In this document: positions 17,648-34,120 of the stretch, piece after piece
Layout of the letters: every line of letters begins with the position of its first letter
Position numbering within the stretch: the stretch's first letter is position 1
NCBI GenBank assembly: GCA_020344415.1
Contig: CP070825.1
Location: 4,221,299 to 4,285,298, forward strand
Reading direction: 5' to 3'
Length of the DNA: 64,000 bases
DNA from: Candidatus Aminicenantes bacterium
GTDB lineage: Bacteria > Acidobacteriota > Aminicenantia > Aminicenantales > Aminicenantaceae
Made by a program: the position numbers and the translations under genes
Notes under the pieces: model-generated
What the model saw: only the letters and a program-made list of their open reading frames with translations
The model's database searches: none
What the model was told of the DNA's origin: nothing

Positions 17648-17652
17648 TAGCA

Positions 17653-17682: not shown

Positions 17683-18445
17683 TATCTTTTATTAATTTCA
17701 AATATTCGTTGATTTTATCTTTGAGCGATTGGTCTTTGACATGGGGAAGTACATTTTCGAATAATATGCGAGCCTTTTCAAACTCTCTGTTATTGATGTA
17801 GGCGATACCCAGATTGATCCTTATGATGATCTCATTCGGGGAAATCTTCAAGGCGCTTTGAAAACTCATGATGGCTTCTAGAAGACGTCCCATCTTGTTC
17901 AGAATAACTCCTTGCAGATTATAGACTGCTGATGCGCGGGCGTTTTTCTGGATCGATTTCTGGACATAATCCAAGGCAAGTTCCAGCTTGTCTTGTCCGA
18001 GGTAAAGCTTGGCCAGGTTGAAGCTGGCATTATGGTTGCTGTCCATGGCGTAAGCTTTCTTGTATTCTTCTTCTGCTTTATCGAGGAAATCCAATTCTTG
18101 ATAGATGAATCCAAGGTCGTTGTGTACCTCTGACAAATCGGGATTCAATTCTAGACATTTCTTATAGGCTGAAGCAGCCTCAAGCAAGTTCTTCTTCTTG
18201 AAATGAGCAATTCCGAGAAGCTTATAGGACTCGTAATGGGTAGGGTCCAGGGCAAGGGCTTCATTCAGGTATTTTATGGCTTCATCCACCAGCCCATAAT
18301 TCATGGCAACAATAGCTTTTTCATACTGGTACTGAGGGTCGTTTTCGCGTTCGACCTTTTTGCTCTCAACTTTGCTTTGAGATGTGGCACAGAAGGTCAA
18401 GAAAAGGCTAGTAGCTAAAAGAATCAGAATTTTTTCAAATTTCAT
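17669..18445 (-). CDS. TPR-repeat lipoprotein
   Basis: The ATG at 18445 (MKFEKILILLATSLFLTFCATS, with a lipobox) has AAAGGA upstream. The body is consecutive TPR units (A.Y.LG..Y....F.KA...F). Confidence 0.8.
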   Translation of the reverse strand: MKFEKILILLATSLFLTFCATSQSKVESKKVERENDPQYQYEKAIVAMNYGLVDEAIKYLNEALALDPTHYESYKLLGIAHFKKKNLLEAASAYKKCLELNPDLSEVHNDLGFIYQELDFLDKAEEEYKKAYAMDSNHNASFNLAKLYLGQDKLELALDYVQKSIQKNARASAVYNLQGVILNKMGRLLEAIMSFQSALKISPNEIIIRINLGIAYINNREFEKARILFENVLPHVKDQSLKDKINEYLKLIKDRVKK

Positions 18446-18566
18446 GGTCATCCTTTCTGGCAATTTTTTTCATCTTTCTTCATCATCTTAAGATTAATCC
18501 AACACACAATAATACCTCAATTTGTCTCTTTCAGTAAATGAAATCACTAGAAGATAATATTTTTAG

Positions 18567-18916
18567 CTCCAAATCGGATTCGTTCTGGCATTTCCAGAGG
18601 ACTTTATCAGGAAGCTGGAGAGGGCGAGAGACATGGAGCCAGGCTTCAAGTATATCCATGTGCATGCCCCTTGCTCTCCAGGGAGGAAATCCCTAAAGAT
18701 AAGACTATCGAAGTAGCACGCCTGGCTGTGAAGACAGGCTTCTGGATTCTGTATGAAATGGATCATGGCACATTGAGAGTCACATATCGTCCAAAGGAGA
18801 GAAAATCGATTAAGGATTATCTTCAGATTCAGGGTCGATTTACCGGATTACGCAAAAAGCATATCGAAACCCCTCAGGATTGGGTGGATGAGAAATGCAA
18901 AGAGCTCGGCTTGTGA
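18567..18916 (+). pseudogene. 5'-truncated, frameshifted remnant of a pyruvate/2-oxoacid:ferredoxin oxidoreductase beta subunit (PorB-like C-terminus)
   Basis: Frame A (18567-18683) reads LQIGFVLAFPEDFIRKLERARDMEPGFKYIHVHAPCSPG. The shifted frame (from about 18686) reads EEIPKDKTIEVARLAVKTGFWILYEMDHGTLRVTYRP...YLQIQGRF. Together they match the conserved C-terminal ~110 aa of PorB. The TPP-binding N-terminal part is absent, a stop (TAG 18564) precedes it, and there are no porA/D/G genes nearby. Confidence 0.6.
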
Positions 18917-18993
18917 GCAAAGAATTCCTTTCTCGTTGACACCCCTCTTTTTAAGTATTATTCTAAGGCAAAAAATTAAAAGGACTGTTTAGG

Positions 18994-20133
18994 ATGAAGT
19001 GTCCCAAATGCAATTCAGACAATCCAGATGGTTCCATTTTTTGCGGTAAGTGTGGTGCCAGGCTGGGCGAAGTGGGATTAAAGAAGACTGAACTGGATAC
19101 TCCTGCTCTCTGGGTGGATCTAGTCCAGTTAGAAGAGAATATCGCTTTATTATCCGCGTGCTTTAGGAAGGCAGTTATCAACTGGCGACCTCATATGAAA
19201 GGCATAAGATCACCTGCAATCGCGCACAAACTCATTGCAGCAGGCGCAATAGGGATCACTTGTGCCAAATTAGGCGAAGCAGAAGTCATGGTCGCAGCAG
19301 GAATCGAAGATATACTCATAGCAAACCAGGTTGTGGGAACTCGAAAGTATGCCCGCGTTGCTGAACTCAAGCGACATGCGGATGTGAAAATTGCCGTGGA
19401 TAGTGAGGCAACTCTATCTGACCTTGGCAAAGCAGCTCTGTCGAAAGGAGTTGAGATCGGTATTGTGGTCGAATTGGATACAGGGATGGGCCGGGCAGGC
19501 ATCCAGCCAGGAAAGCCAGCGCAAGAGCTTTCTCTCCTTGTCCATGATACCCCTGGCCTTCACTATCTAGGGCTTATGACATGGGAAGGTCATGCAGTGT
19601 GGATCGATAATCCAGACTCGAAACGCAAGGAAATCGAGAAGTCTATCAAAGAACTGAGAGATAGCGCTGAGCTCTGTCGTCAAGCTGGCCTGCCTGTGAG
19701 CATAGTCAGTTGTGGCGGGAGTGGAACATACACCATCACTTCTCAGCTTGCTGGTATTACTGAGATACAGGCAGGCGGTGCGATTTTTTGTGATGTCACT
19801 TATCAGAAATGGGGTGTAAAAACAAAACCCGCTTTGTTTGTGCGGAGCACAGTAACAAGCCGGCCAACATCCGATCGCATCATCTTTGATGCGGGTTTTA
19901 AGACAATGCCGGCATGGTTCAATCCTCCAAGACCTATCGGTATATCCAACATCAAGAGCATCGTGATGTCTGCAGAGCATGGAGTTTTAACTCTTGAAAA
20001 ACCTAACGATAGTGTTAAAGTAGACGATATCTTCGATTTTATCCCTGGCTATGGAGACATGACAGTCTTCCTCCACGATTATCTCTACGGAATTCGTGAG
20101 AATATTGTGGAGGAGATTTGGGGAATAGGATGA
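18994..20133 (+). CDS. Zinc-ribbon fused to a fold-type-III PLP enzyme of the D-serine dehydratase / D-threonine aldolase (DSD1, alanine-racemase-N) family
   Basis: N-terminal MKCPKCNSDNPDGSIFCGKCGARL (CxxC-x11-CxxC). Then TPALWVDLVQLEENI...WRPHMKGIRSPAIAHKLIAAGAIGITCAKLGEAEVM, which resembles the PLP-lysine region of DSD1-type enzymes. Confidence 0.75.
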   Translation: MKCPKCNSDNPDGSIFCGKCGARLGEVGLKKTELDTPALWVDLVQLEENIALLSACFRKAVINWRPHMKGIRSPAIAHKLIAAGAIGITCAKLGEAEVMVAAGIEDILIANQVVGTRKYARVAELKRHADVKIAVDSEATLSDLGKAALSKGVEIGIVVELDTGMGRAGIQPGKPAQELSLLVHDTPGLHYLGLMTWEGHAVWIDNPDSKRKEIEKSIKELRDSAELCRQAGLPVSIVSCGGSGTYTITSQLAGITEIQAGGAIFCDVTYQKWGVKTKPALFVRSTVTSRPTSDRIIFDAGFKTMPAWFNPPRPIGISNIKSIVMSAEHGVLTLEKPNDSVKVDDIFDFIPGYGDMTVFLHDYLYGIRENIVEEIWGIG

Positions 20134-20227
20134 ATGTCAGATATTTGAATCCCTATTCTTCATGTATCAAAAATATCAAATAACAGTGTGCAGCTCCTAA
20201 TGCAGTATTTATTTTGATGGAGTCGAT

Positions 20228-21358
20228 CTATCCGAGTATCTCCTTGTAAACCCGCATGAAGTTTTCTCCCATGATTTTCTTGATATCTGGCGTCGAGTAG
20301 CCGCGTTGGGTAAGCCTTTCTGCTATGATATACATCTTCTCCGGGACATCGATTTCTTCAATAAATGGCGGCCAGCGAAGGTCGACTCCCGGCTTGAAGT
20401 GAAATTGATCGTGAAAATCGAAGAAAGCTTTCTCTGTAGGGAAGGAAATCCGCCAACCACCAATACTTGAGTCAGAGCCGATTCCAACGTGGTCAATTCC
20501 GACGAGTTTGATGACATGTTCAATATGATTGATATAGTCATCGAGTGTAGACCGCGGCTTCTTGCTGATGAAGAAGTTTACCGTCGCAACGCCCATGACT
20601 CCGCCTTTTGCAGCCAGCTTCTTGATTTGATCATCCCACTTGCCTCTGGGATTGTCACACAGAGCGCGGCAAACAGTATGAGAAAAGATAGGGGTTTTTT
20701 TTGAGACTTCGATCGCATCAAGGGTTGTCTTCACCCCGCAGTGAGAAAGATCCACGAGTATGCCCAGCTCGTTCATCCTGTGGACGACCTTTACACCGAA
20801 GTCGCTCAAGCCGGAATCCTTCCGCTCAGTGCATCCTGCTCCGAGGGCATTCAAAGAGTTGTAGGTCAGTTGAATTTGCCGGATTCCAAGGTTATAGAAG
20901 AAATCGACATTCTTTATGTCGCGCGCAAGATGGGTAGCATTTTGAAAACCGAGCATGAGAGCTATTTTCCCTGTTTTCTTTGCTTCAAGGATGTCGCGAG
21001 TCGTCCTTACCCTGATGAGTACCTCTTCAAAACGATCGAAGATTCCGTGATACATGGCCAGGTCTTTGACAGCCTGTTCGTAACCAAAGGTAGGGTCCCC
21101 TTGGGCGCCAAGGGTTGTCTCGATCATGGTGAGACCTGAGCGTTTGATCTCGTCCTCTCCTTCTTTTCCTAGCCTCAGGCCGCCCAGTGCATCGATAAAG
21201 ATCCAATCCTTATACTTAGCATAAGCTTCTCTTGGAGTTTGGCCGTTGTTTCCATTTTTTATAGAGGCCATTGCAGATCGGACGTTGCCGCCTGGGAGCC
21301 CGAAAGTCAAGATGCTCGCGAAAGCACTCTTCACGAAATTACGCCGTGAAATACTCAT
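20228..21358 (-). CDS. M19 (renal/membrane dipeptidase) family protein with twin-arginine signal; first metal-site residues appear substituted
   Basis: MSISRRNFVKSAF is a Tat motif. VDLSHCG, IFSHT and IGSDS are M19 motifs. The paralogue 25238..26260 has IDVHSDV and FEGVE where this protein has IDALGG and FQNAT. RBS AGGAG. Confidence 0.85.
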   Translation of the reverse strand: MSISRRNFVKSAFASILTFGLPGGNVRSAMASIKNGNNGQTPREAYAKYKDWIFIDALGGLRLGKEGEDEIKRSGLTMIETTLGAQGDPTFGYEQAVKDLAMYHGIFDRFEEVLIRVRTTRDILEAKKTGKIALMLGFQNATHLARDIKNVDFFYNLGIRQIQLTYNSLNALGAGCTERKDSGLSDFGVKVVHRMNELGILVDLSHCGVKTTLDAIEVSKKTPIFSHTVCRALCDNPRGKWDDQIKKLAAKGGVMGVATVNFFISKKPRSTLDDYINHIEHVIKLVGIDHVGIGSDSSIGGWRISFPTEKAFFDFHDQFHFKPGVDLRWPPFIEEIDVPEKMYIIAERLTQRGYSTPDIKKIMGENFMRVYKEILG

Positions 21359-21473
21359 CTCTTATCTCCTTTCTTTTCGCCCGCACGCATGTTAGCGCGC
21401 GATCAGCCAAAATATATCCAAATCTGTCAAAAGTACAAATTTTAAATGGAGATATCCTGGTCTTTAATAAAGA

Positions 21474-22577
21474 TCATTTTACTTCAGGATTAAAGAGAAA
21501 ATAGTCATAAAGAGCTCTCGAGATTTGAGCAATCACCTGCTCACGCTTTTCATTTTCCACTTTCGATTCCTTAATATAAATGGCGGCGATAATATTACCG
21601 GCATTGTCAGGAAGAGAAATGATTCCAGCATCGTTTAAAGTCCCCCCGATAGTACCTGTCTTATGGTATACAACGGTCCCTTCAGGCAAGATGCCTCTGA
21701 TTCTACCCAATCCGGTTTCACAGCGTTTCATGATATCGAGCATCAGAGCAGAGCTTTCCTCAGTCAGGATTTCTCTGTTCCAGATCTTCTTGAGCAATAG
21801 GGCCATACCTTCAGGAGTGGTCGTGTCTTTGGGATCCGCGTTAAAGGCTTCACCAGCCTTTTTCTGCTCCTCAGGTGGAATCTTTTTGAGCAATTCCATG
21901 AGTTCTTCGATGGTTATTCTTGCATCGTTAGGTATCTCTTTAATGCCCAAATATTCATTGATGATACCGAGGACGGTCCGGTCTACTCTTATGCCTTCAA
22001 TGCCGATATCCCTCATATACTGTGTGACCGCCGCGGTTCCTCCGGCCGTCCGTATGCATAGATCAGTCGCGCTGTTATCGCTGATGATGAGCATGAGTTT
22101 CATGAGATTCAAAACCGAGAGTTCAACACCTGGATCGTCGAAAAGATTTGTGAGTGTTCCACTTCCAAGACGACGGTCTCCGGCTTCAACGGGAATCATA
22201 TCGTCAAGCTTGAGTTTTCCTTGATCAACCAGGCTGAGCAGCTTTACGGCTATAGGAACCTTAAAGGTGCTCGCCATTGGAAATCCGACAGATTTGTTCA
22301 AGTAAACCTCTCGTCCTGTTTCTAAATGAATTGCGCCAACACCCACAACGCCTTGGGCGCCTTTTGCTAGGCGGGCGATTTCCTTTTCCAGCCGTACCAA
22401 TCCAGGATCGTCTCCGACGTGAGAGGCATCCTGAGCAAAGAGTGTCAAGCCCCCAAAAGCAAGAAGAATAAAAACACAACAGCCTAGAAACGAACTCAAC
22501 AGTACTCTTCCCGGTTGCCAGAGTTGAAAGATACCCTTTGCCGCTTTCCTGCTTTTCCAAGAGAAAGAATAATCCAT
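21474..22577 (-). CDS. Class-A beta-lactamase-fold serine hydrolase, membrane-anchored/exported
   Basis: STFK (SxxK), SDN (IISDNSATD), KTG (HKTGTIGG). N-terminal hydrophobic segment. RBS AAGGAGG. Confidence 0.8.
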   Translation of the reverse strand: MDYSFSWKSRKAAKGIFQLWQPGRVLLSSFLGCCVFILLAFGGLTLFAQDASHVGDDPGLVRLEKEIARLAKGAQGVVGVGAIHLETGREVYLNKSVGFPMASTFKVPIAVKLLSLVDQGKLKLDDMIPVEAGDRRLGSGTLTNLFDDPGVELSVLNLMKLMLIISDNSATDLCIRTAGGTAAVTQYMRDIGIEGIRVDRTVLGIINEYLGIKEIPNDARITIEELMELLKKIPPEEQKKAGEAFNADPKDTTTPEGMALLLKKIWNREILTEESSALMLDIMKRCETGLGRIRGILPEGTVVYHKTGTIGGTLNDAGIISLPDNAGNIIAAIYIKESKVENEKREQVIAQISRALYDYFLFNPEVK

Positions 22578-22614
22578 TATATACCTCCTTCACAGATTTT
22601 AAGCATCAGAAAAA

Positions 22615-23706
22615 TTATTTCTTAAGAATCTTATATAATCCAAGCGTCATTAGAGGCACAAAATAGATAAAGAAAACTCCCCAGCTCATCAATCCATATC
22701 CTTTGGCAACCAGATTGATTATTCCAAAAGACGATAGACATAAGCTTATAAGAAGCATGAGTACACCTATGACTGGCCTCATCCAGCGTGGAAAGACTTT
22801 CCCTCTAGCCTGAAAAGCAGATTGTATTCTCTCATTGACAGAATGGATAAAGCCTGTTCCTGTCTCAATCAGTGTTCCAACCAACATGACAAGAAAAATA
22901 ACCAGTAGGAACGGAACCCCTGCTTCTTGAATAACGAAAACTGCTGGTATTTCTTCAGTTACTACTGCAGGATAGTAACCAAGGATAGCAATGTAGAAAA
23001 AAAAGCCGGGCAGAAGACCTATGAGTGCAGCGATAGCGCCTGCAGAGATAGCCTCCTTTCTTGTTTCAATATTTCTAATACAAAAAAGAACGGCTGGGAA
23101 GACACTCATATTATAGAGACCGTATTTTAAGCCTCCGATCGCCCATTTAGGGAGTATGATGCCACTGGTCAGGTTTTTCTGGATCAGGGGACCAAACTTA
23201 ATGATGGCAATAATGAGAAAAAGAGCATAGACAACATAAATAAAAATGGACCAGCCAGAAAGGAATTTTTCTATGAGGCCGCTACCTTTGAAAGTCAAAA
23301 ACCCAACTGAGGCCAGCATGATTCCTACACCAAATAGATAAGGGAATCCAAAAAAATCACGCAGTAAAACACCTGCTGCAGAGCCAATGACAGCCAATAC
23401 TACGATCAGAAGAACAATAAAAAATACCTCAAAGATAAGCCAAAAACGACCAAGAAGATTCAATAGAAGAGATCGGTAATCATAGAGCTTGAATTTACGA
23501 GAAAACTCGAATGTCGCAGCCAGTATGAGTGACCATAAAACCAAGGTGATGAGAAACATCCCCAATATTCCACCTAAAGGTCCGTATTTCATGAAATACT
23601 CGACAAGCTCACGACCGGTTCCATAGCCGCCACCTATAAGAACCCCCTGGAATATAAGACCAGGTACAAAGTACCTCCTGAAGAATGAAGCTTTTCCGTT
23701 AGTCAT
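22615..23706 (-). CDS. YkvI-family polytopic membrane protein (putative amino-acid/small-solute transporter)
   Basis: About 11 TM helices. The N-terminal FQGVLIGGGYGTGRELVEYF motif is characteristic of the YkvI family. Confidence 0.75.
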   Translation of the reverse strand: MTNGKASFFRRYFVPGLIFQGVLIGGGYGTGRELVEYFMKYGPLGGILGMFLITLVLWSLILAATFEFSRKFKLYDYRSLLLNLLGRFWLIFEVFFIVLLIVVLAVIGSAAGVLLRDFFGFPYLFGVGIMLASVGFLTFKGSGLIEKFLSGWSIFIYVVYALFLIIAIIKFGPLIQKNLTSGIILPKWAIGGLKYGLYNMSVFPAVLFCIRNIETRKEAISAGAIAALIGLLPGFFFYIAILGYYPAVVTEEIPAVFVIQEAGVPFLLVIFLVMLVGTLIETGTGFIHSVNERIQSAFQARGKVFPRWMRPVIGVLMLLISLCLSSFGIINLVAKGYGLMSWGVFFIYFVPLMTLGLYKILKK

Positions 23707-23771
23707 TTTTATCTACACCTAATCCTTAGAGTCCTAATTTACAATCATGGTGAATGTTAATTCGTGATTGT

Positions 23772-25124
23772 TTATTTTTTCTTTTCTTCAAGTTCTCTTT
23801 TTACCCTGCGAAGCCGAAGTTCGTCAGCAATCAGGGAAGGCATGGCGCACAGATAACAATCGTTTGGAAGCGCAGCGGGTTCGAAAGCATCCACGCCGTG
23901 TTTGAGGCGAATGTCAGCGATCTTTTTAACCATTTCCACAAACCATTCTGCCTGTGGAGCGCGAAATCCATCGTATTTTGTGCCTTTCACCGGACTCCAA
24001 ACAAGAGGGATGGATCCGATGCCGCGTTCCGAGCACCACTCGATTCCCTCAAGTAGACTCTCCTCAGGCTCGATGAATCCTGTGACAAAGTGAGTGCTCA
24101 CCCTTCCAGGCCCGTAGACCTCAGCTGCCACCTCCAAAGCCCTCAGCCAGTGGTCTCTGCCCTGAACCTTATCTTTCCCCGGGCAGTACTTCTTAAACAG
24201 AGTAGGATCCCACACCTCAAGGTTATAGGCGACAGAATAGGCTCCTTTTTTCTTGTGTTCTTCGATGCTTTTGAGATCCTTATCCTCTGGAGCGGTACGG
24301 ATCACGTTAACCGGTATATCATCCCTTTTGAGAGCCTCTTGCTGAGCATGGATGATGTCCAGGATCATTTTGTCTTCCCTGTCTATTTCCTCTCCAGTTT
24401 TCTTTTTGTGCTTGCTCAAGTACCCGCCTGTCAGCAGAATGTGTTTTAAACATCCTTCATCGAACGCTGCCTTGGTCGTCTTGAGAATCTGGTCGAAGCT
24501 CCGTTTGGTAACCTGAAGATCGTCTTTTGTCCAGCGCATATTCGGGACAATATTGCAGAATTGACAGCCATCATCGGTTGTCCAATACATGCAGAAGGGA
24601 GCGTAATTCAAGACGAGACAGTCCTGCCCCCGTTTGGGAGCGATGCGCCTCATGATGATCCCTGGAGATGCTTCCATGCTGTAGTATTTTGGCCGGGGAA
24701 TATGCCGGCATTCTATAACGAATTTCCCGTCCCGCTTGAGAACCATAGCCCCGTCTTCGACCGTACACATCCATCGGGAATCACTATTCTCCCTGACCTG
24801 AACCACACTATCCATCGGAAGCAGCAATTCTTCGGGAAGATAGTAACGGTGCTCACTGATGTTCCAGTCGAAAAGCCAACGAGACTGTTCCCTGTAGACA
24901 TCGCAGATACCTTCCAGTGCAGAATCATCAAACCGCAGGCCATCGGCCAGGAGGCTGGCTTTCACCCATATCTCCTTCTCCAATCCTTCTGGAGTAGGAT
25001 CGAGTGGAGGCTTTATCTGGGGAGCCTTTAGGTTTTTAACATAGTAGGTAGCCTTGTGCCATTCCTCATATTTTTTATTGATATCAGTAAAGAGCCTGTT
25101 CGTTTCCACATTCATAGGAGACAT
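23772..25124 (-). CDS. Radical-SAM-like TIM-barrel protein with non-canonical Cys spacing (C-x8-C-x2-C) and a ~170-aa N-terminal domain of unknown function
   Basis: FCMYWTTDDGCQFCN (aromatic residue before the last Cys, as in CxxxCx-Phi-C), ILLTGG (GGE-like), and HFVTGFIEPEESLLEGIEWCSERGIGSIPLVWSPVKGT (BioB/HydE-like segment). RBS AGGAGG 6 nt upstream. Confidence 0.55.
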   Translation of the reverse strand: MSPMNVETNRLFTDINKKYEEWHKATYYVKNLKAPQIKPPLDPTPEGLEKEIWVKASLLADGLRFDDSALEGICDVYREQSRWLFDWNISEHRYYLPEELLLPMDSVVQVRENSDSRWMCTVEDGAMVLKRDGKFVIECRHIPRPKYYSMEASPGIIMRRIAPKRGQDCLVLNYAPFCMYWTTDDGCQFCNIVPNMRWTKDDLQVTKRSFDQILKTTKAAFDEGCLKHILLTGGYLSKHKKKTGEEIDREDKMILDIIHAQQEALKRDDIPVNVIRTAPEDKDLKSIEEHKKKGAYSVAYNLEVWDPTLFKKYCPGKDKVQGRDHWLRALEVAAEVYGPGRVSTHFVTGFIEPEESLLEGIEWCSERGIGSIPLVWSPVKGTKYDGFRAPQAEWFVEMVKKIADIRLKHGVDAFEPAALPNDCYLCAMPSLIADELRLRRVKRELEEKKK

Positions 25125-25130
25125 GGTTCT

Positions 25131-25241
25131 TTACCTCCTTGAGTTTAATATTAAATCCATTAAATAACTACATATGTCTTTATCATTAGGACAAGCATCT
25201 TTACAATACTTGCATTGATAGACCATATTTGTTGGCTTCAT
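25131..25241 (-). CDS. Unannotated 36-aa Cys-rich ORF: MKPTNMVYQCKYCKDACPNDKDICSYLMDLILNSRR
   Basis: Hand-translated on the minus strand. The ATG overlaps the TGA of the upstream dipeptidase gene (ATGA). The last codons AGG AGG double as the RBS of the downstream radical-SAM-like gene. It is below the 60-aa cutoff of the ORF track. Confidence 0.35.
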   Translation of the reverse strand: MKPTNMVYQCKYCKDACPNDKDICSYLMDLILNSRR

Positions 25242-26260
25242 TTCCAAACACTTTTGAATACACGGAGGAAATTCTTGGCCGAAATGAGCTCAATCTCCTC
25301 ATTGCCGTAGCCCCTCTTCTTGAGCCCTTCGATTACTGCCGGGATATCCTCGTCCTTTGTGAGATTGTTCGATGGAGAAGTCACAAAGGCATCCTTCGGT
25401 AATCGCATATGTTCCTCTTCGGATAAATATTTCATGAGATATTCATAAAAATCAAAGCCGAATCCCACATTCTCCACTCCGGCCACTTTTACCACATAAT
25501 CTAAATGGTCTAATATATGGTCAACAGTTCGGCTTCCTCCGGATTTCGGCGCAAAACAAAAATGCAACACTCCGATAACCCCTCCTCTTTCCGCTACTGC
25601 TTTAATCTGGTCATCGGTGAGATTCCTGGGATGATCACATAGGGAGCGGCAGTTTGAATGGGTGGCTATCACTGGAGATTTCACATGTTCCATAACATCC
25701 CAGAAGCCTTCATCATTCAAATGCGTCACATCTACCAATATCCCCAATTCCTCTGCTTCTTGTAGAAGTTCAATCCCAAATTCAGAAAGGCCTCCAGGCT
25801 TTCCCATTTTTCCTGGAGAGAAAAGAGATCCGTCCCCGGCAAAGTTTCTTCGGCTGTGGGTCAAAGCCATGATTCTCAAGCCCAATTTGTAAAATACAAA
25901 GAGAAGATTTTTATCATTCAGGAGAGGCTCTACGCCTTCAAATGCAAGAATGAGCCCAATCTTGCCGCTCGCCAGAGATTTTTCAATATCTTCGAAATTG
26001 CGACACACGGATATGCTCGGAGATTCATTTTCCTCTGCGAGCAAGGCACTGACCATATCCAGTGCTCTTCTCAGAGCCATATCAGGAACGAAGGCTTCGT
26101 CGATATATATCGATGCGACTCGCAGATTTAGCCCTGCTTTTCTCATCGCAGGAACCCAGTCTTCTTCAAAGACTTTTATCCTGCCCAATGCCCGTTTCCT
26201 AATGATATCCATCAATACATCAGAATGGACATCAATAAGCGAAAGGTTTTCTTTTTTCAC
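25238..26260 (-). CDS. M19 dipeptidase (renal-dipeptidase family), cytoplasmic, canonical metal ligands
   Basis: IDVHSDV (HxD), LAFEGVE, VDVTHLN, IATHSN, GFGFDF. GTG start with GGGAG upstream. Confidence 0.85.
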   Translation of the reverse strand: MKKENLSLIDVHSDVLMDIIRKRALGRIKVFEEDWVPAMRKAGLNLRVASIYIDEAFVPDMALRRALDMVSALLAEENESPSISVCRNFEDIEKSLASGKIGLILAFEGVEPLLNDKNLLFVFYKLGLRIMALTHSRRNFAGDGSLFSPGKMGKPGGLSEFGIELLQEAEELGILVDVTHLNDEGFWDVMEHVKSPVIATHSNCRSLCDHPRNLTDDQIKAVAERGGVIGVLHFCFAPKSGGSRTVDHILDHLDYVVKVAGVENVGFGFDFYEYLMKYLSEEEHMRLPKDAFVTSPSNNLTKDEDIPAVIEGLKKRGYGNEEIELISAKNFLRVFKSVWK

Positions 26261-26416
26261 TTACGTTCACTCCCAATTTTTTTGTCCAATGTTATCAAAT
26301 TAGATTCTTGTATGGCAATATCATTCTGTTCCTACAGTATAGAGCTCAGGTGAATTTGAACTGATCAATATGGGACGGTTTAGTTTTGAAAAAAGAGAAC
26401 CGTCTCCAGTCTCGAA

Positions 26417-27841
26417 TTACTTCTCAAAGATGTACTTCATGGCATCGAAATCGAGTGTCCAGGAGGAATACTGGCGCAGAAATCGATGCGAAATCAGTCC
26501 ATCCTGAATATATCCTGAACCCCAATAGGATTCTGGCGGTCTGGCTCCATACGTTCCCTTGACGTTGGATTGGATCAGGCTGCCCATACTGATTGTCTTG
26601 ATCGGGAAAATCCCGGAAGCCCACTTTCCTCCTCCGCCTCCGACACTTTCCTTATCAATCTTTGTCTCAGGCACCGGAATACCGACATAGTTCAGGGTTT
26701 GAATAGGCGCTGTGAAACAGGCCTCGCCTTCAAGACCAGAGTCCACAAAGAAGGTCAGACCGTCTTTGTCGTTCAAACCTCCTCTGGTCATCATCATATG
26801 GGTGGCGTCCAGCACAAAAGGCACTTCAGCGGCAATCCTGCCTTTGAGCTCTTCCTGAAGTTTACGAGCGTTTTCCTTTATCCTTTCTTGCAGGATCATC
26901 CGGCCGTTCTTATAATCAATGGTCGAAAGAAACTGACGCATGGCAGCTGTGCCGATGGCACCTCCTATCGTGTATTTCCCTTCTTCAAAGGCTTTGGAGA
27001 ATCGCTTGGTCGGAAGAATAATGATTGGCACCTGCTTCAGCGTAACATCACCCAACTTGACGCTGTCTACTTTTCCGAATCCGATCTCGCTTGTCTTTCC
27101 TCCTCCAAATGAGCCCGTGGCTTTTGCGCTCCATTCGATACCCAGTGCGGATGCGATCTCGTTATCCAAAATGAACGTATCTGCACCGGTGTCGAAGAAT
27201 ACAATTACCGGTAGTCCATTGAATTCGATCTCTAGTACTGGCAGGGAATCAGTCATCAGAAACTGTATTATCGAGACCTTTTCCTCGCTGTGCCATTCCT
27301 TTTGATAGGGATTTTCTTCAAATCTCTTTATGGCTTCCACGTTGGGAAGCTTGACCCCTGGCGGAAACTCCAATTCTTTAATTTTGTTAAATCGGTCCAT
27401 CTGGTAGTACGTAAACATCAACCCAACATTGGCCATGACCTGGCCGGACATGTCCCCGGCCTTCGCTTCGACAAGCCGTTTGTAAAGCTTTTCGGCTTCG
27501 CTGTAGTTTCCAATAAGATACTCAAGCTTCGCCGCTACAGATAATGCCTCATCTGAGGGTTTTGAATCCTGGACTAGAAGCGCAATCACATCTCTTGCTT
27601 TCCAGAATTCACCGGACTGGTAGAGTAGGTTTCCGTACTTGAACCGGATTTCTTTATCGCCAGGATTTTTCTTGAACTCGGGCTCGGTCTTTTTAATTTC
27701 AGCCAGAATATCTGCGCGAGTCTTTTCCCCTTTAGGCGGCTTGGCTTCCTGGTTTTCAGACATAATATTGCCTTTTGTCATTGTGAAAGAAAAGCTCATT
27801 GAGAATAAAAGGATAAAGCATGCCCTTAAAGTTGAGCCCAA
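26417..27841 (-). CDS. Secreted protease with N-terminal TPR and two retropepsin-like aspartic protease lobes
   Basis: Signal-like N-terminus (TTG start). VFFDTGADTFILD (D-T-G) and FFVDSGLEGE (D-S-G) lie about 140 aa apart. TPR-like region at aa 50-140. Confidence 0.7.
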   Translation of the reverse strand: MGSTLRACFILLFSMSFSFTMTKGNIMSENQEAKPPKGEKTRADILAEIKKTEPEFKKNPGDKEIRFKYGNLLYQSGEFWKARDVIALLVQDSKPSDEALSVAAKLEYLIGNYSEAEKLYKRLVEAKAGDMSGQVMANVGLMFTYYQMDRFNKIKELEFPPGVKLPNVEAIKRFEENPYQKEWHSEEKVSIIQFLMTDSLPVLEIEFNGLPVIVFFDTGADTFILDNEIASALGIEWSAKATGSFGGGKTSEIGFGKVDSVKLGDVTLKQVPIIILPTKRFSKAFEEGKYTIGGAIGTAAMRQFLSTIDYKNGRMILQERIKENARKLQEELKGRIAAEVPFVLDATHMMMTRGGLNDKDGLTFFVDSGLEGEACFTAPIQTLNYVGIPVPETKIDKESVGGGGGKWASGIFPIKTISMGSLIQSNVKGTYGARPPESYWGSGYIQDGLISHRFLRQYSSWTLDFDAMKYIFEK

Positions 27842-27874
27842 ATTGAGTTTTGATAACGTTTGTTCTTACCTCCC

Positions 27875-28963
27875 TTATTTATATCCATGTTTGCCCCGTG
27901 CATATGCGAGGCTGAAGTCTATCTTTTCACCAGTAGGAGAAAAATCTCGATCCTTCCAATCAGGCAATTTCGCCTGAGCCTTCTTAAGAATATCGCGACC
28001 TCCTTCTTCATTACTAACGGCCTCCACCATCTTCCTATATGTTATATGCGCGGTATAGTTGGAGAGCAGTCTAAAGGTGAGGTAAGCTTCCAAGAAACTC
28101 TCAGTAGTGATACTCACTGTCTTGTTGTCAACTTCTTTTGCCCCTGGAAAGTCCATTGCCATCGTAGCATGAACTGGCAGCGTATATTTGAACAGGTTCT
28201 TGAAAGGTTCATTTAGTTCCTGAGGTTTCCAGACCGGAATATCCTTCAGATTGCGAAGCGCCCGTTCCGCAGCAGCTTCTATTTCTGCAGAAACCTGCTC
28301 TTGTGGTCTTGGTACAGCTTTAAAAAAGTCCACTGCCTTTTTCACCACTACATATTCAGTTCTTGGAGAAAACTCCTTAATTTCCTGCTCCAGAACATCA
28401 TCTCCTGCGACTAGAATAAGCGGAATGTCGAACCGCGCCGCTGAAGCTGCAACAAGCATACTCTCGTTCATATCAAAACCAGCCATGATCCATTTGGTAT
28501 GGATATAATAGGTATGAGCAATTTGACCTTTTGCACCTGCGCGGCTGTGCATGCCCATGCACACCACTGCATCGAAGGTCTCATCCAGTGTGTCGATATA
28601 GGCATCATACACCTCATCACGGATGTCAAAGCGGGCTCCCTCGGGCAATCGGTCAACTATGTAATCGGGTTCAGGATTTCCACTCCCATGAGCATCGGTC
28701 AAGACAACCTCACGGGCTCCAGACTTGAGCAATCCTCTAATGGCTGCGTTCACATCCTCAGTGAGTGATTCTCGCGCAGCTTGATAGGTGGGGGAATAGG
28801 AGAGAACATCATTAAAATTGGTCACGCCTGAGGCACCGTCCATGTCGATAACTATAAGGACCTTGGGTCCTGCTTGCTTACACCCGGGCACAACATAGAA
28901 TATCAGCAGAATAGCTGTCCCTATTCCAATCGCTGTAAGCCAGTAAAATTTTTTTGGACGCAT
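27875..28963 (-). CDS. M55 family D-aminopeptidase (DppA-like), membrane-anchored/exported
   Basis: VLIVIDMDGASGV resembles the DppA D-M-E-G-x-x-G start. VVLTDAHGSG, CMGMHSRAG. Hydrophobic N-terminus. RBS AAGGAGG. Confidence 0.8.
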   Translation of the reverse strand: MRPKKFYWLTAIGIGTAILLIFYVVPGCKQAGPKVLIVIDMDGASGVTNFNDVLSYSPTYQAARESLTEDVNAAIRGLLKSGAREVVLTDAHGSGNPEPDYIVDRLPEGARFDIRDEVYDAYIDTLDETFDAVVCMGMHSRAGAKGQIAHTYYIHTKWIMAGFDMNESMLVAASAARFDIPLILVAGDDVLEQEIKEFSPRTEYVVVKKAVDFFKAVPRPQEQVSAEIEAAAERALRNLKDIPVWKPQELNEPFKNLFKYTLPVHATMAMDFPGAKEVDNKTVSITTESFLEAYLTFRLLSNYTAHITYRKMVEAVSNEEGGRDILKKAQAKLPDWKDRDFSPTGEKIDFSLAYARGKHGYK

Positions 28964-29086
28964 TGTCTTCCTCCTTACATAAAATATTCCCCAACTCTCA
29001 GCCCTAGCATTGTAATTCGCTATGACTATTTTTCGAAGCCTTTATAATCAAAAATTGATAGCCTGTATAATCAAATTGAAAAAACT

Positions 29087-30556
29087 TTACGCTTTTTTGA
29101 GCTTTCCCCAAAATGTCGAAACAACTTTATCCGACGGTTTGGGTGTAAACGCACTGACCAGGATATAAACAACAACGGAGCTCAACACAGAGAGGAATGA
29201 AGGATGTGTACCCCATACTTTAATTTCTGGGACTATAGTGTTCGCCAGCGCATATATAATCATTCCCCAGATTATCGAGGCGATGGCTCCCCATTTATTT
29301 CCTCTTTTCCAAAACATCCCCAACAGTATTGGTCCGAATGTTGCAGTTACCAACCCGCCGATCGCAAAAAAGATTATCCATTGTATCAATGTGGGCTGAA
29401 ACAATGCGAGGGCAATCGCTATTGTAAGGCAAGCTCCCATTGTTAACCTTGATGCCAGCTTCACCTCTTTCCCTGATACATCCGGTTTGAGCTCTTTGAG
29501 AAGGTTTCTTGCAATGCTGGAGGTTATGATTATAGCCATTGCTGCCACAGTGGTCTGGATTCCGGCTACAATGCCGGCAAGCACAATTCCTCCCAGAGCT
29601 TTTGGCATCACATTCATTGCTAACCAGGGGCTGATTTCATCTGGCACAGAAAGCTCTGGAATTATTGCGCGGCCTAGGACTCCTGACATGCAGAGAAGGA
29701 TTGTCCATAGAAAAACTAAAATAGCTCCCATCCATATTCCTCTTTTGAGTGCTCTTGTATTTTTGTATGTCAAAGCGCCGAGCATGGCGTGGGGCATCCC
29801 AATGATAAAAAATCCTGTCATGCACGCGAGCGAGAAGGCAAACATTGGCGGAAATTCGCCCAGTTTGGTAGGCGAGAGAAAGCTCATATCCAGGGCTGTG
29901 ATGGCCTCGGTCGATTTTTGAAATCCACCTGCATACACTACAGTTCCTATGAAAAGTATTATGCAACCTATGGTTATGACAACGCCCTGCAGGAGAATCG
30001 CTATAGATGTCCCTCGCATGCCGCCTAATACACAGTAGACCAGTACGACCGAAGACCCGAGGGCGAGAGAGGCAAAATATCCCATCCCCGTCATCTGGGC
30101 AATAACCCTTGCAGCTCCCACAAACTGGGTTGCCATATAAGGCAGTAAGAATATTGTCACCAAAACGGCTAGAATCACGACGATGGCCTTACTCTCATAC
30201 CTAGCTTTAAAAACGTCCAGGTATGTTATGGCGTTTACTCTCCGGGCGACAATTCCCACCATTATGCCTATCGGGGCCAGCAGCAAAAGATTCATGAATA
30301 TCTGAAAATTATTGATAAGCACCCAGGAATAACCGTAGGCATAAGTCATTCCCGGACCTGCGATAAATGTTCCCGCGCTTGCTAGCCCCCCTGCAATTAT
30401 CAGGGCGACAACTATTCCTCCCAATCCCCTCCCTGCAGCATAAAATTCTTTCTCGTATTTTGCGATGGGGACTCTTTCTACAATCCGGTATGACCATATC
30501 CCTATTGCTAATAATATGGCTGTATATATGAAAAAAGATAATATTGCTGGGTTCAT
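29087..30556 (-). CDS. Sodium:solute symporter family (SSS; PutP/PanF-like) transporter
   Basis: 489 aa with about 13 TM helices. N-terminal YAAGRGLGG and a GGMRG segment are typical of the SSS family. The ATG overlaps the stop of the upstream small ORF (ATGA). Confidence 0.85.
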   Translation of the reverse strand: MNPAILSFFIYTAILLAIGIWSYRIVERVPIAKYEKEFYAAGRGLGGIVVALIIAGGLASAGTFIAGPGMTYAYGYSWVLINNFQIFMNLLLLAPIGIMVGIVARRVNAITYLDVFKARYESKAIVVILAVLVTIFLLPYMATQFVGAARVIAQMTGMGYFASLALGSSVVLVYCVLGGMRGTSIAILLQGVVITIGCIILFIGTVVYAGGFQKSTEAITALDMSFLSPTKLGEFPPMFAFSLACMTGFFIIGMPHAMLGALTYKNTRALKRGIWMGAILVFLWTILLCMSGVLGRAIIPELSVPDEISPWLAMNVMPKALGGIVLAGIVAGIQTTVAAMAIIITSSIARNLLKELKPDVSGKEVKLASRLTMGACLTIAIALALFQPTLIQWIIFFAIGGLVTATFGPILLGMFWKRGNKWGAIASIIWGMIIYALANTIVPEIKVWGTHPSFLSVLSSVVVYILVSAFTPKPSDKVVSTFWGKLKKA

Positions 30557-30822
30557 TTTTCCTCACTTTCTTCTTCATCATTATCTGTCAGGGGAATGTC
30601 GGGTATAAGTTTTTCAGCCACGAATATTAACGCGATCACGAATACGATGGGGATTAGAAGGTTTCCGATGGCCACCCAGCGGGGTAATCCGAAGATGTAT
30701 GGTTTTATCCCTAAGACATAAGACAATACCAATATGACTATAAGATAGACAGCAAAAAAGATCCAAGCTATGGCAAGCCCCCTCTTTGCTACTTTTATTC
30801 TCGGGTCTTGAATGAATTTCAT
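30553..30822 (-). CDS. Small 2-TM membrane protein translationally coupled to the SSS transporter (YhdT/DUF997-like arrangement), acidic tail
   Basis: The ATG at 30822 is preceded by AAGGAGGTG. Two hydrophobic helices. C-terminal DNDEEESEEK. 4-nt overlap with the SSS gene, as for yhdT-panF in E. coli. Confidence 0.55.
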   Translation of the reverse strand: MKFIQDPRIKVAKRGLAIAWIFFAVYLIVILVLSYVLGIKPYIFGLPRWVAIGNLLIPIVFVIALIFVAEKLIPDIPLTDNDEEESEEK

Positions 30823-30946
30823 TTTCACACCTCCTTCAAAGTCTTTGAGATTTATTGATGTATACGAGGATTCAAGCAACTAAAAAATATAATATTTAAA
30901 GATATTATTCTAATTTTCAGATTGAATTGAAACAAAAAAAATATGA

Positions 30947-32074
30947 TTATCCATAAAGCAGGCTGGGTGAACTGAGATAATTATCGATTTCTGCAGCGTC
31001 TGCATCTATGGATAATCCGAAAGCTGGGTTGTTCATTGTGGCCTGAATTTTCTCAACTAGACTTTTGGTGATCGGCCCGGGACGGCCATCTCCTATCACT
31101 TTACCTATTACCGAAATAACAGGCAGAACTCCTGCACCCGTGCCAGTCATAAAGCACTCTCTGTTCTCGCCCATGAGGTCGATCGGCATCATGTCTGCAT
31201 CATCATCGACAGTATAACCTTCCTCCTTAAGTAATTTTATAGTGAGCGCTCTTGTGATGCCAATTAGACAGTACTGAGCCCGCGGTGTTCGGGCAACTAC
31301 CTTTGATGTATCGCTCTCCCAATCTTTGTTGCGCTCTATTGAAAATATATTATCTACTGTGGCTTCAGCGATAAATCCTCTTTCAGTCAGCATAATTGAT
31401 TCCATATCCGTTTCAGCCGCACCTTCCAATAGTCCGAGTACATTATTAATATAGTTATTGGATTTTATATTGGGGTTGAGAATTTGGGCGTTTGGACGAC
31501 GGATATTTCTCGATACCCCCAGGGAAATTCCTTGTTCATAATAGGATCGGGGATATAGATTAATGCTCGAAGCTAAAGCGAAAAGAGTAGCACCGATGCA
31601 TTTTGCTGGATTTATTCCCAAATCACCCATACCACGACTGACCACAAGGCGGATATAGCCCTGTTCTCTCAATGAAGGATCAACGGCCTGACATGTACGC
31701 AGTAGCAATTCAGTCAATTGTTTGGGGCTGTATGGAATACTGATGTGGAGCATCTCGGCTGATTTGAAAAATCGCTCTATGTGTTCTTGCCATAAAAAGA
31801 TTTGATTGTTTTTAATAAGGATTCCTTCAAAACACCCATCCCCATATAATGCAAGATGATCGAGAACAGATAAAGAAGCCTCTTTAAGCGAGAAAATTCC
31901 ATGCCTTCGTTCTAGACCTTCATCCGTATTTGCTCGTTCAGCTTGTTTTTGATCATCGAGACATGCGGGCGTAGCATTTTCAACGACAGGCATGCTGAGG
32001 AAGACTCGCGCATGAATGCCTACTTCTTTGAGCGCTTCATACGCCTTTCTTAATCTTTCATCACTTATGTTCAT
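30947..32074 (-). CDS. Class IV (fold-type IV) aminotransferase, D-amino-acid / branched-chain aminotransferase family, with ~65-aa N-terminal extension
   Basis: LYGDGCFEGI, VSRGMGDLGINP, TERGFIAEATVDNIF and FMTGTGAGVLPV are all class IV signatures. Confidence 0.85.
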   Translation of the reverse strand: MNISDERLRKAYEALKEVGIHARVFLSMPVVENATPACLDDQKQAERANTDEGLERRHGIFSLKEASLSVLDHLALYGDGCFEGILIKNNQIFLWQEHIERFFKSAEMLHISIPYSPKQLTELLLRTCQAVDPSLREQGYIRLVVSRGMGDLGINPAKCIGATLFALASSINLYPRSYYEQGISLGVSRNIRRPNAQILNPNIKSNNYINNVLGLLEGAAETDMESIMLTERGFIAEATVDNIFSIERNKDWESDTSKVVARTPRAQYCLIGITRALTIKLLKEEGYTVDDDADMMPIDLMGENRECFMTGTGAGVLPVISVIGKVIGDGRPGPITKSLVEKIQATMNNPAFGLSIDADAAEIDNYLSSPSLLYG

Positions 32075-32632
32075 AAATGCACTCCTTATATTTACCTGAA
32101 TTATTCACAAAAACGGCCGACACCTTCACTGATTTTCAATGACGCAAACATTTTGTATTAATTTTTGCCCAAGCTAAAGATCAAGCCTTCTCCGGTGGAT
32201 TAATTTAAACTTTCTGTCGCCATTTTTATGAATTATCCGGGTTACCAAGATTGGTATGAAAAATGGCATTCCAATCAATATCATTAACACCAAAACATGT
32301 CAACTAGTACAGAGCCTAAGAAATCCCTGATAGAACATGAGGATGGGCTCTGTCGCGGTGTGTCCCTATCTGTCCTCGCTCCACCTATCCTAATGTGGCC
32401 AATCGGTGATCTTTTCTTCTCAAATTTCGTTTGGATTGACTATGTGAATGTTCTAGTGGTATGTTCATCTGTTCTACTATCAATCCTCCGGATATTATAA
32501 AGACAGAAGTTCTGTACACAATCCTGGGAGGAAAGATCATATACGAGAAGCCTTCTGAAAAATAGGTTAAGAGAAAATTTTAATTCTTCTAGGCGGAATA
32601 GAATTTTTCATTGAATAAATAAGTATATATTA

Positions 32633-32890
32633 ATGAGAGAAGAAAAAATGTCTTTTCCAAAAAGCGTGCGCAAGATCGGGCGCTGGATTTGGGTATATCT
32701 AGTTATAACCGCTATCTTATCCGTTATTTTTGGAGTGATTTTTTTCTCTGCCATTCTTGATAAATATGGTTTTTGGGCGTCACTTTTTTGGACTCTGCTG
32801 GGGATTATTTTTATATGGATATTCTCCCTTCTGAAAGCGTATATCATAGAAAGCATTATATTGAAAAAAAAGAAAGAGAAGCAGATATAA
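32633..32890 (+). CDS. Possible small membrane protein (3 hydrophobic segments) in an AT-rich region
   Basis: 85-aa ORF with no recognisable family and no clear RBS. Confidence 0.3.
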   Translation: MREEKMSFPKSVRKIGRWIWVYLVITAILSVIFGVIFFSAILDKYGFWASLFWTLLGIIFIWIFSLLKAYIIESIILKKKKEKQI

Positions 32891-33101
32891 CAACTTATTA
32901 TAATATCTTCTTGTATCCGTAGAAAAAATTTCTTTTTGTATTCGCATCAAATCCTTTATAGTTTCGTCCAATATCGAGCCGATGAGTTGGCGAGATAAAC
33001 ATATCATAGGCAAAATGACGTGGTCGACAGGAGGGAAAAGGACATGTGAATCTTGACAATAAATGACATTTTCAAAATAATATCAAAAACAGGAGGATGT
33101 C

Positions 33102-34058
33102 TTGAGCTTCTTTAAAATGACAAGGAAAAATATTTTCAGGCCCAGAAATCTTTGTATTGTAAGGAAAGTTACTTTATGTATAAGTTTGCTGCTAGTAGCG
33201 ATACCGCTTTTTGGGCAAAACGAATCTATTTTGAAGAAATTTTTCGAAGGTAAAACAATAGTTGTGAAGATCGATATGCCAGCAACGAAAGAGGGAGTAG
33301 ATTTATACCCCTTAAGAGAGCAACCAATCAACTTCAATAAATATGGCGATAGAATAAAAAAATACGGTACTGCTGTATTTGCAGATGAGAAAATTATGAT
33401 TACGAAGATAAAAATTAAATCGAAACATATCGAGTTTCAACTTGGCGGCGGAGGATACGGTACTGCAGGGGATGATATGGGATATGTTGCTGTACCTTAT
33501 GTGAGAAAATCCAAACGTGAGAAAGATCTTGAAAAAGCAGTTAAGAGAGAACCCAACACGGAGAGAAAGAAAGAACTTCAGAGAGAACTCGATTATTTAA
33601 GAAGGGAACGCCAACGGGAGGAAAAAAGGCTTCGCATCGAAGCGGAGCAACAAAGAGCAATAAATGAGTCGATTGTACGCGAGAAAGCACAACAAGCGGG
33701 TTCACGTTTCAATATTCGTTATGATTATGACTTACGATTAGAAGAAAAAACACCTGAATCTGTTATGGCTGCACTCCAGGAATATGTTGAATTTCTCCCA
33801 GAGTCCTTTGGAGGCGTGGGCGGGTCAGAGAAATCCGGGATGAAAAGCGATTCATCAAAGTGGCTTGGTTCAGATAGCTTGCGAAAGGGATTGTTGTGGG
33901 AAGAGGTGGCCTCAATGTTAGGCGCTCCTACCAGCATCAACGAACGCATGGAAGGGAAGTTGAAAGTCATAACTTGCACGTTTATCAAGGGAGAACAAAA
34001 AATCGAAGCCGAATTTGTAGAGGGTGTTCTGATAAAATATACTATTTCTTCAAAGTGA
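33102..34058 (+). CDS. Secreted protein with central highly charged coiled-coil and a small C-terminal beta domain, unknown function
   Basis: TTG start, 5 nt after AGGAGG. Signal-like VTLCISLLLVAIPLFG. KREKDLEKAVKREPNTERKKELQRELDYLRRERQREEKRLRIEAEQQR. Confidence 0.5.
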   Translation: MSFFKMTRKNIFRPRNLCIVRKVTLCISLLLVAIPLFGQNESILKKFFEGKTIVVKIDMPATKEGVDLYPLREQPINFNKYGDRIKKYGTAVFADEKIMITKIKIKSKHIEFQLGGGGYGTAGDDMGYVAVPYVRKSKREKDLEKAVKREPNTERKKELQRELDYLRRERQREEKRLRIEAEQQRAINESIVREKAQQAGSRFNIRYDYDLRLEEKTPESVMAALQEYVEFLPESFGGVGGSEKSGMKSDSSKWLGSDSLRKGLLWEEVASMLGAPTSINERMEGKLKVITCTFIKGEQKIEAEFVEGVLIKYTISSK

Positions 34059-34072
34059 ATATAACAGATTGC

Positions 34073-34120
34073 GGGTTAGGTCTTGTTTTTTGCCCAAAAA
34101 ACAATACCTGACCCTTTTTT
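34073..34120 (+). terminator. Intrinsic-terminator-like hairpin built from an inverted pair of repeat module A
   Basis: GGGTTAGGTCTTGTTTTTT-GCCC-AAAAAACAATACCTGACCC (17 of 19 positions pair), followed by TTTTTT, 15 nt after the stop at 34058. Confidence 0.6.

Follow-up and report, generated by a model that had tools for sequence, protein, structure and literature searches.

A strain-variable peptidase and transporter neighbourhood in a Candidatus Aminicenantes genome, probably serving the scavenging of detrital protein and peptides

The murein-peptide locus dppABCDE-ykfABCD of Bacillus subtilis and the Mpp, LdcA, MpaA and YcjG recycling enzymes of Escherichia coli are, we presume, the described systems closest to the locus analysed here, a run of eleven peptidase, transporter and enzyme genes in 64,000 nucleotides of DNA from a Candidatus Aminicenantes bacterium (GenBank assembly GCA_020344415.1, contig CP070825.1, positions 4,221,299 to 4,285,298 of the forward strand; this whole stretch is called the window below). 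The genome is one contig of 4.43 Mb, with the window at 4.22-4.29 Mb. Aminicenantes abound in sediments, are uncultured and presumably feed on detrital protein. For several of the protein types found in the run, relatives have been described individually: PBP-A (Tll2115) of Thermosynechococcus is a DD-carboxy/endopeptidase acting on muropeptides (PMC11189452), wild-type LRA-5 is not an active beta-lactamase (PMC12777564), PvdM is a non-hydrolytic, periplasmic M19 homologue that has lost its zinc site (PMC9305348), and radical S-adenosylmethionine (SAM) groups with a CX8CX2C motif have been listed as uncharacterised variants (PMC9477430).

An earlier note, made by a model from the letters of the window, had described eleven minus-strand genes with short gaps or 4-nt overlaps and a convergent gene for a pyridoxal phosphate (PLP) enzyme, and had proposed that they form a single pathway for degrading D-residue-containing peptides, importing the products and deaminating or transaminating them. 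All eleven open reading frames (ORFs) in 20228-32074, each on the minus strand, and the convergent gene were recovered with identical coordinates, and profile searches confirmed nearly all of the family calls. The functional interpretation changed. The neighbours share a theme and not a fixed pathway, and the locus is probably a strain-variable, plastic neighbourhood for scavenging detrital protein and peptides, its gene content fitting a pattern in which modules are exchanged, acquired or dropped while a few pairs recur.

Gene content of the locus and its variation among relatives

From 32074 downwards, and followed by the convergent gene and one non-coding element, the locus comprises:

30947..32074, minus: class IV aminotransferase, a divergent paralogue resembling branched-chain aminotransferases (BCATs), 375 aa (PF01063, 129 bits)
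30553..30879, minus: DUF997 / YhdT-like small membrane protein (PF06196, 38 bits; PRK10633, 41 bits)
29087..30556, minus: Na+/solute symporter of a PanF-like branch (PF00474, SSS, 181 bits)
27875..28963, minus: M55 (DppA-like) aminopeptidase, long form (PF04951, 192 bits)
26417..27841, minus: TPR-headed bilobal aspartic protease, putatively exported (TPR and Asp_protease_2)
25238..26260, minus: canonical M19 dipeptidase, predicted cytoplasmic (PF01244, 277 bits)
25131..25241, minus: 36-codon ORF with four Cys, doubtful as a gene (ATGA overlap with the M19 stop; no family match)
23772..25124, minus: variant radical SAM enzyme, CX8CX2C (NF045502 variant_rSAM, 318 bits)
22615..23706, minus: YkvI-family polytopic membrane protein, putative permease (language-model match 0.98)
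21474..22577, minus: class-A beta-lactamase-fold serine hydrolase lacking Glu166, putatively exported (Beta-lactamase2, 184 bits)
20228..21358, minus: M19-fold protein with the twin-arginine translocation (Tat) motif SRRNFVK (PF01244, 261 bits)
18994..20133, plus: PLP enzyme, probably of the DSD1 / D-threonine-aldolase family, convergent (Ala_racemase_N, D-ser_dehydrat and an N-terminal Zn ribbon)
32249..32314, minus: conserved 66-nt non-coding element 5' of the aminotransferase gene, containing TTGACA

Successive gaps along the run measure 67, -4, 123, 33, 156, -4, 6, 65, 37 and 115 nt. Clear Shine-Dalgarno sequences precede most starts, the TTG start codons of the DUF997 and aspartic-protease genes being uncertain. 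The genes may be co-transcribed, judged solely from their common direction and short gaps.

We compared the locus with 61 relatives from the same order, with 36 genomes of the same family and, for the M55 gene, with a phylum-wide sample of 300 genomes. The gene-neighbourhood check suggested in the earlier note turned out negative: the set is not syntenic in relatives, not even within the genus, and the proposal of one functional unit, itself flagged there as inference, fails on this point. A same-genus genome (G001) carries the aminotransferase (90% identical), aspartic protease, YkvI and a TPR gene in direct succession, with aspartic-protease orthologues 82-88% identical and the YkvI orthologue, directly after the aspartic-protease gene, 85% identical. 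The first three are the only cluster genes common to both genomes; the rest are scattered or not found in relatives. Alignment of the DNA located the differences as follows:

27809-30938: DUF997, symporter and M55 genes; G001 has a 241-nt spacer instead
23716-26417: M19 gene, Cys ORF and radical SAM gene; G001 has a 105-nt spacer instead
18536-21473 and 21554-22603: PLP enzyme gene, Tat M19 gene and most of the class-A gene; missing in G001
21474-21553: 3' end of the class-A gene; G001 retains 80 nt of it at 85% identity

The class-A remnant sits between the YkvI and TPR genes of G001 (L045:6160-6237), so at least this difference is a deletion in G001. The body of the PLP gene is missing in related populations: in contigs from two other studies, a groundwater run and a run of marine sediment, position 19038 is joined to 20068, so that 1029 nt drop out in frame and what is left of the gene is its zinc-ribbon start and its final 22 codons. 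Other contigs, from different studies, bridge YkvI to the radical SAM gene (94% identity) and symporter-DUF997 to the aminotransferase (96%), which shows that the expanded gene set did not arise from misassembly of this genome. Joints linking 17678 with 20266 or with 32090 were set aside, as their sides were only 23-24 letters long.

Within this variable content, certain pairings recur. The bilobal aspartic protease is found with M55, M24, M1 or S9 peptidases: one relative (G031) has the order S9, aspartic protease, M1, MBL, YkvI, and among metagenomic orthologues two are followed by an M55 gene, others are preceded by an M24 gene or by a DDE transposase gene, and others have unrelated neighbours. 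That transposase (PF13701) lies directly upstream of an 85%-identical aspartic-protease orthologue (L054:3-725) and fits a recombination-prone locus. The DUF997 and symporter genes, which overlap by 4 nt in the window, were always paired in nine relatives, at 78-83% identity in eight same-family genomes and 67% in G037. An S15 X-Pro dipeptidyl peptidase gene directly adjoins the pair in G018, G011 and G037, and lies within about 3 kb of it in G031 and within 6 kb in G008. The exopeptidase partner is thus S15 in five relatives, M55 here and M19 in one, and the order DUF997, symporter, S15 in G037 corresponds to DUF997, symporter, M55 in the window. Amidohydrolases, PF00144 hydrolases, M19 genes and TonB-type outer-membrane proteins are further neighbours of the orthologous pairs. 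This adjacency to exopeptidases suggests that the substrate of the DUF997-symporter pair is an amino acid or a small peptide.

An analogous island was observed in a related genus (G008; L030, G008:C122:1-20000), where the symporter pair is 81% identical. It holds S9, DUF997-symporter, a Tat-signal M19, a PF00144+DUF3471 serine hydrolase, a canonical M19, an amidohydrolase and S15, together with a TonB-type outer-membrane protein and a second Tat-signal M19.

Across the whole genome there are seven M19 and four M55 loci, and three of these eleven lie in a stretch of 8.7 kb, for which random placement gives P about 0.002. M19/M55 clustering thus exceeds chance, and a search of 60 relatives found no further case of M55 co-located with M19.

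Between the window and G001, identity is 95% in the 66-nt element 5' of the aminotransferase gene and 87% in adjoining coding DNA. The element has an AT-rich hexamer 17 nt downstream of TTGACA, and it may be a promoter or operator. No Rfam match was obtained across window positions 17000-35000. GC content, tried as a divider of the variable blocks from the shared genes, gave no separation. A PorB relic (18567-18916) and an amidohydrolase relic (32440-32565) listed in the earlier note found no Pfam match on an ORF scan and stay unconfirmed. The hydrolase-rich region reaches well past the cluster: positions 1314-4293, 6423-7913, 12391-14013 and 40573-42198 of the window encode two amidohydrolases, of which one is fused to a flavodoxin-like domain, two beta-lactamase-fold hydrolases of family PF00144, one of them carrying TPR, and one TAP-like alpha/beta hydrolase.

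Active sites and a putative scavenging route

In the scavenging reading, peptides would be cut outside the cytoplasm by the putatively exported aspartic endoprotease, the lipoprotein-like M55 enzyme and the class-A-fold serine hydrolase. Export was read by eye from N-terminal signals, and substrates are throughout those suggested by family membership. The two lobes claimed for the aspartic protease hold up: DTG (D217) and DSG (D367) are invariant in 60 family members, and an AlphaFold model (predicted local distance difference test score, pLDDT, 92.6) has the Bacteroides fragilis endopeptidase 9iy9 and then pepsin-like bilobal proteases as its best fold matches. A lobe-versus-lobe BLAST comparison was not significant and the second lobe is unseen by Pfam; the protein is called bilobal because of the DTG/DSG conservation and the structure model. 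Its N-terminus is hydrophobic. The family is large (1477 representatives at E<=0.001; 197 cluster representatives at E<=1e-30), its only solved relative is 9iy9, annotated as a 'putative endopeptidase', and we found no characterised member of this TPR-pepsin-like bacterial family.

The DppA-like assignment of the M55 protein was likewise upheld by its Pfam score and by comparison with the DppA structure 1hi9 (E 4e-17), in which the D, H, H and E metal positions are kept and one Glu is changed to Asp. It scores 102 bits against the DppA equivalog NF058634, whose cut-off is 430, and its membrane- or lipoprotein-like N-terminus ends in VPGC. Homologues of equal length number more than 250, at 52-64% identity; the best match among the 61 relatives is only 41% identical, and the phylum-wide sample contains no close orthologue. 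As characterised members of its family act at D-centres, the enzyme may plausibly handle D-residues.

The class-A-fold protein has the STFK, SDN and KTG boxes and scores 216 (216.3) bits against NF033103, above the cut-off of 200. It lacks Glu166: V202 aligns to Val166 of LRA-5, and the equivalent residues in four orthologues from related genomes are T, T, C and C. Relative to LRA-5, the omega loop is extended by 38 residues; it contains E224 and E236, both invariant across orthologues, either of which could conceivably substitute for Glu166. The N-terminus is hydrophobic, and the match to PBP-A reaches E 8e-28. Given the missing Glu166 and the likeness to LRA-5 and PBP-A, 'DD-peptidase-like', as the protein had been labelled, is a fair description at the level of sequence.

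The Tat-exported M19 homologue fared less well. Fold and Tat motif are as described, but three of the five zinc ligands are gone, namely HxD (IDALGG instead) and the bridging Glu (LGFQNAT), and only two later His residues are retained. The Pfam match is limited to profile positions 59-319, and the best structural match is the Pseudomonas aeruginosa 'amidohydrolase' 2i5g, which has the identical IDxL and GFQNA substitutions. By analogy, this zinc-site-less protein may do no more than bind peptides outside the cytoplasm.

Products would then be imported by two secondary carriers, the DUF997-PanF-like symporter pair and the YkvI-family permease. Assignment of the latter to YkvI rests on a language-model match of 0.98 to clusters of that name, which agrees with the earlier call; searches gave no Pfam or NCBIfam match, that is, no support from profile hidden Markov models. 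Inside the cell, the canonical M19 enzyme would split dipeptides. Its identification as a dipeptidase is borne out by the profile score and by a full set of binuclear-zinc ligand motifs (IDVHSDV, LAFEGVE, VDVTHLN, IATHSN, GFGFDF), and its best relatives are 47-50% identical.

The amino acids so released would include L-branched-chain-type ones, which the aminotransferase may deaminate. A D-amino-acid transaminase had been an option for this enzyme; model scores, archaeal relatives and active-site motifs all point to a BCAT-like enzyme instead. BCAT models score 246, 191 and 183 bits compared with 113 and 112 bits for D-transaminase models, the closest solved structures are archaeal BCATs (Archaeoglobus fulgidus 5mqz and Geoglobus 5cm0/5e25, E 1e-47), and FEGI together with YIR (YIRLVVSRG) forms the BCAT pattern. 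D-transaminases are marked by a carboxylate-binding R-x-H strand plus a Y-E motif, a fingerprint that the protein lacks. It lies below the TIGR01121 D-transaminase equivalog cut-off (112.5 versus 277 bits) and, though IlvE is its best-matching class, also below the TIGR01122 IlvE cut-off (182.8 versus 245.55 bits). The canonical IlvE is encoded elsewhere in the genome (G000 2531647; 344 bits), no gene in the genome exceeds the D-transaminase model cut-off, and the alanine racemase gene lies 690 kb from the cluster. An aminotransferase near an M55 gene in another genome (G050) was rejected as an orthologous co-location, being a housekeeping IlvE within an ilv cluster. Directly downstream of a 74%-identical aminotransferase orthologue in G028 we observed a 90-aa Cys-rich ORF (CxC, CxxC; L040:7493-7765) without a Pfam match.

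The convergent PLP enzyme could act on D-beta-hydroxy amino acids. It probably belongs to the DSD1-type family, matching the D-threonine aldolase 4v15 at E 1e-55 and keeping both fold-type III domains and the PLP lysine K69. The metal site is altered, Asp355 being kept and His347 of 4v15 replaced by Tyr353. Against the BhcC equivalog it scores 221 bits (cut-off 690), and no match at E<=1e-40 was found among the 36 same-family genomes. Taken together, family relationships make D-residue handling plausible for four members of the neighbourhood, the M55, canonical M19, PBP-A-like and D-threonine-aldolase-like proteins.

A stand-alone CX8CX2C radical SAM enzyme occupies the middle of the cluster. 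It had been called radical-SAM-like, and the NF045502 score of 318 bits, the three-Cys motif and the fold match substantiate this, with PF04055 at 28.9 against a cut-off of 29.5. C178, C187 and C190 of the motif are invariant in 29 members, and C169, C314, C423 and C426 are nearly so; these four extra Cys suggest an auxiliary cluster. The protein has an N-terminal domain of 165 aa. A sequence search against solved structures gave no match, and the model (pLDDT 88) has LipA, HydE, BioB and PylB as its nearest folds. Family members are 65-86% identical across Acidobacteriota, Gemmatimonadales, Alpha- and Deltaproteobacteria and Bacteroidales, after which identity drops to 37%. At 70-86% identity, orthologues were found in another Aminicenantes family, in a deltaproteobacterium, in Gemmatimonadales and in Desulfonema, in no case beside another cluster gene. 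Neighbours in one deltaproteobacterial metagenome-assembled genome are TetR, a class IV aminotransferase and a LivJ-type binding protein; elsewhere they are GntR with an HMGL-like enzyme and a TRAP transporter, or MttB.

Competing readings and implications

Several observations weigh against a scavenging neighbourhood. By model score, the symporter is closest to pantothenate permease (panF TIGR02119, 318 bits, just under the cut-off of 328). The class-A gene is present in 23 of the 61 relatives at 39-54% identity with no other cluster gene adjoining in the four orthologue neighbourhoods examined, and being kept singly is consistent with housekeeping work on the wall of the cell itself. The orthologue contexts of the radical SAM gene demonstrate no link to peptides, and promoter- and terminator-like sites are not commoner than in shuffled sequence. 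Peptidase genes are abundant in these genomes, as the 7 M19 and 4 M55 loci here illustrate, and gene density or a recombination hot spot, not shared function, may account for some of the clustering.

In one competing reading, the genes have no function in common and are housekeeping genes that became co-directional by chance in a recombination-prone region, the class-A protein remodelling the cell's own wall, the symporter carrying pantothenate, the aminotransferase serving branched-chain metabolism and the radical SAM enzyme acting independently. Differing gene content between close relatives, the transposase beside one aspartic-protease orthologue, the single-copy class-A gene standing alone in the four neighbourhoods examined, the panF score with a YhdT-like partner as in E. 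coli and the unrelated contexts of the radical SAM orthologues all speak for it. Chance accounts poorly for a symporter pair that repeatedly adjoins exopeptidases in nine relatives, for an aspartic protease that repeatedly adjoins M55, M24, M1 or S9 peptidases, for the M19/M55 clustering and for tight gaps with two 4-nt overlaps, and we consider this reading unlikely.

The single dedicated pathway for D-residue peptides, whether peptidoglycan stem peptides or D-containing natural peptides, draws on the presence of the M55, canonical M19, PBP-A/LRA-5-like and D-threonine-aldolase-like proteins within 13 kb, on the activity of PBP-A on muropeptides (PMC11189452), and on the G008 locus, where an orthologous symporter lies beside M19 genes and a different beta-lactamase-fold (PF00144) hydrolase. 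Four members in D-acting families and the M19/M55 clustering are what is left of that proposal; aminotransferase, Tat M19 homologue and synteny speak against it. The aminotransferase is of BCAT and not of D type, the Tat M19 homologue has no zinc site, the gene set is not conserved even within the genus, and M55 and M19 are not co-located in the other genomes searched. Non-synteny and an IlvE-type aminotransferase had each been named in advance as half of an outcome speaking against the pathway. In addition, the cluster encodes neither a racemase nor a D-amino-acid dehydrogenase, and it contains no ABC importer for peptides, no muropeptide amidase and no LD-carboxypeptidase of family S66; a search of the entire genome for S66 peptidases was also negative, and the alanine racemase gene is remote. 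The D-threonine-aldolase-like gene, finally, is missing in close populations and has no match (E<=1e-40) in the 36 same-family genomes. We therefore regard a dedicated pathway as improbable.

A RiPP-like cassette (ribosomally synthesised and post-translationally modified peptide), in which the 36-aa Cys peptide would be modified by the radical SAM enzyme and processed or exported by neighbouring peptidases and membrane proteins, is very hard to credit: the ORF does have four Cys, is coupled to the M19 stop by an ATGA overlap, ends 6 nt before the radical SAM start and has peptidases and a membrane protein nearby, but its composition is intergenic-like (29% GC versus 40-49% in neighbouring genes), it has no homologue or family match and no small Cys ORF counterpart upstream of seven close radical SAM orthologues, and the enzyme itself is 65-86% identical across phyla, stands beside metabolic genes and matches the RiPP maturases SuiB and SkfB about 100- to 500-fold more weakly (Foldseek E-value) than LipA, HydE, BioB and PylB. 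For the Cys ORF noted earlier, position and coupling are thus as described and its status as a gene is doubtful.

Returning to the scavenging neighbourhood, a bolder variant is that some sediment Aminicenantes populations have assembled a toolkit for bacterial cell-wall necromass at one plastic locus. By analogy, it would consist of an exported PBP-A-like DD-peptidase, an exported long-form M55 D-aminopeptidase, M19 and a D-hydroxy-amino-acid aldolase, with the CX8CX2C radical SAM enzyme acting at some step on a released amino acid. We think it improbable that this is so. Should the D-specific members act on cell-wall debris, the locus would bear on the recycling of D-amino-acid-rich necromass in sediments; the present evidence describes an ordinary scavenging neighbourhood. 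Even so, the locus shows how the Aminicenantes peptidase repertoire is organised, with transporter-exopeptidase cassettes and the bilobal aspartic protease recurring, and accessory hydrolases differing by gain and loss from one close relative to another. Separate study is merited by the CX8CX2C radical SAM family, by the TPR-pepsin-like proteases and by the Glu166-less class-A family with its enlarged omega loop.

Comparison with described systems

At the level of single proteins, likeness to known relatives is accompanied by departures. The aminotransferase shares the FEGI and YIR fingerprints, the PLP lysine and the TGT loop with archaeal BCATs, and differs from them by a 60-aa N-terminal extension and a 14-aa insertion. 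With 9iy9 and the pepsin family, the aspartic protease has in common a single-chain bilobal fold with DTG and DSG; it differs in its TPR head, and sequence identity is about 15%. The class-A protein resembles PBP-A and LRA-5 in fold, in the SxxK, SDN and KTG boxes and in the absence of Glu166, whereas it is only about 30-35% alike, has the 38-residue longer omega loop with two invariant Glu, and carries Ala instead of Tyr at residue 69. The Tat M19 homologue, PvdM and 2i5g share the M19 fold, export and replaced zinc ligands. It is much nearer to 2i5g (169 bits) than to the PvdM structure 3b40 (78 bits), keeps two second-site His where PvdM keeps one ligand, and would be exported by Tat in contrast to the membrane anchor of PvdM; pyoverdine genes are absent here.

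Two arrangements invite comparison at the level of gene order. The DUF997-symporter pair has the two-gene arrangement and the best-scoring families of E. coli yhdT-panF, yet its panF score is below the cut-off and in this bacterial family the pair adjoins exopeptidases. Compared with the dpp-ykf locus of B. subtilis and the recycling enzymes of E. coli, the cluster has no ABC peptide importer, S66 LD-carboxypeptidase, L-Ala-D/L-Glu epimerase or NlpC/P60 endopeptidase, and its M55 enzyme, unlike B. subtilis DppA, is long and apparently exported. What it shares with these systems is a DppA-type M55 gene beside uptake genes and other peptidases, and the theme of D-containing cell-wall peptides.

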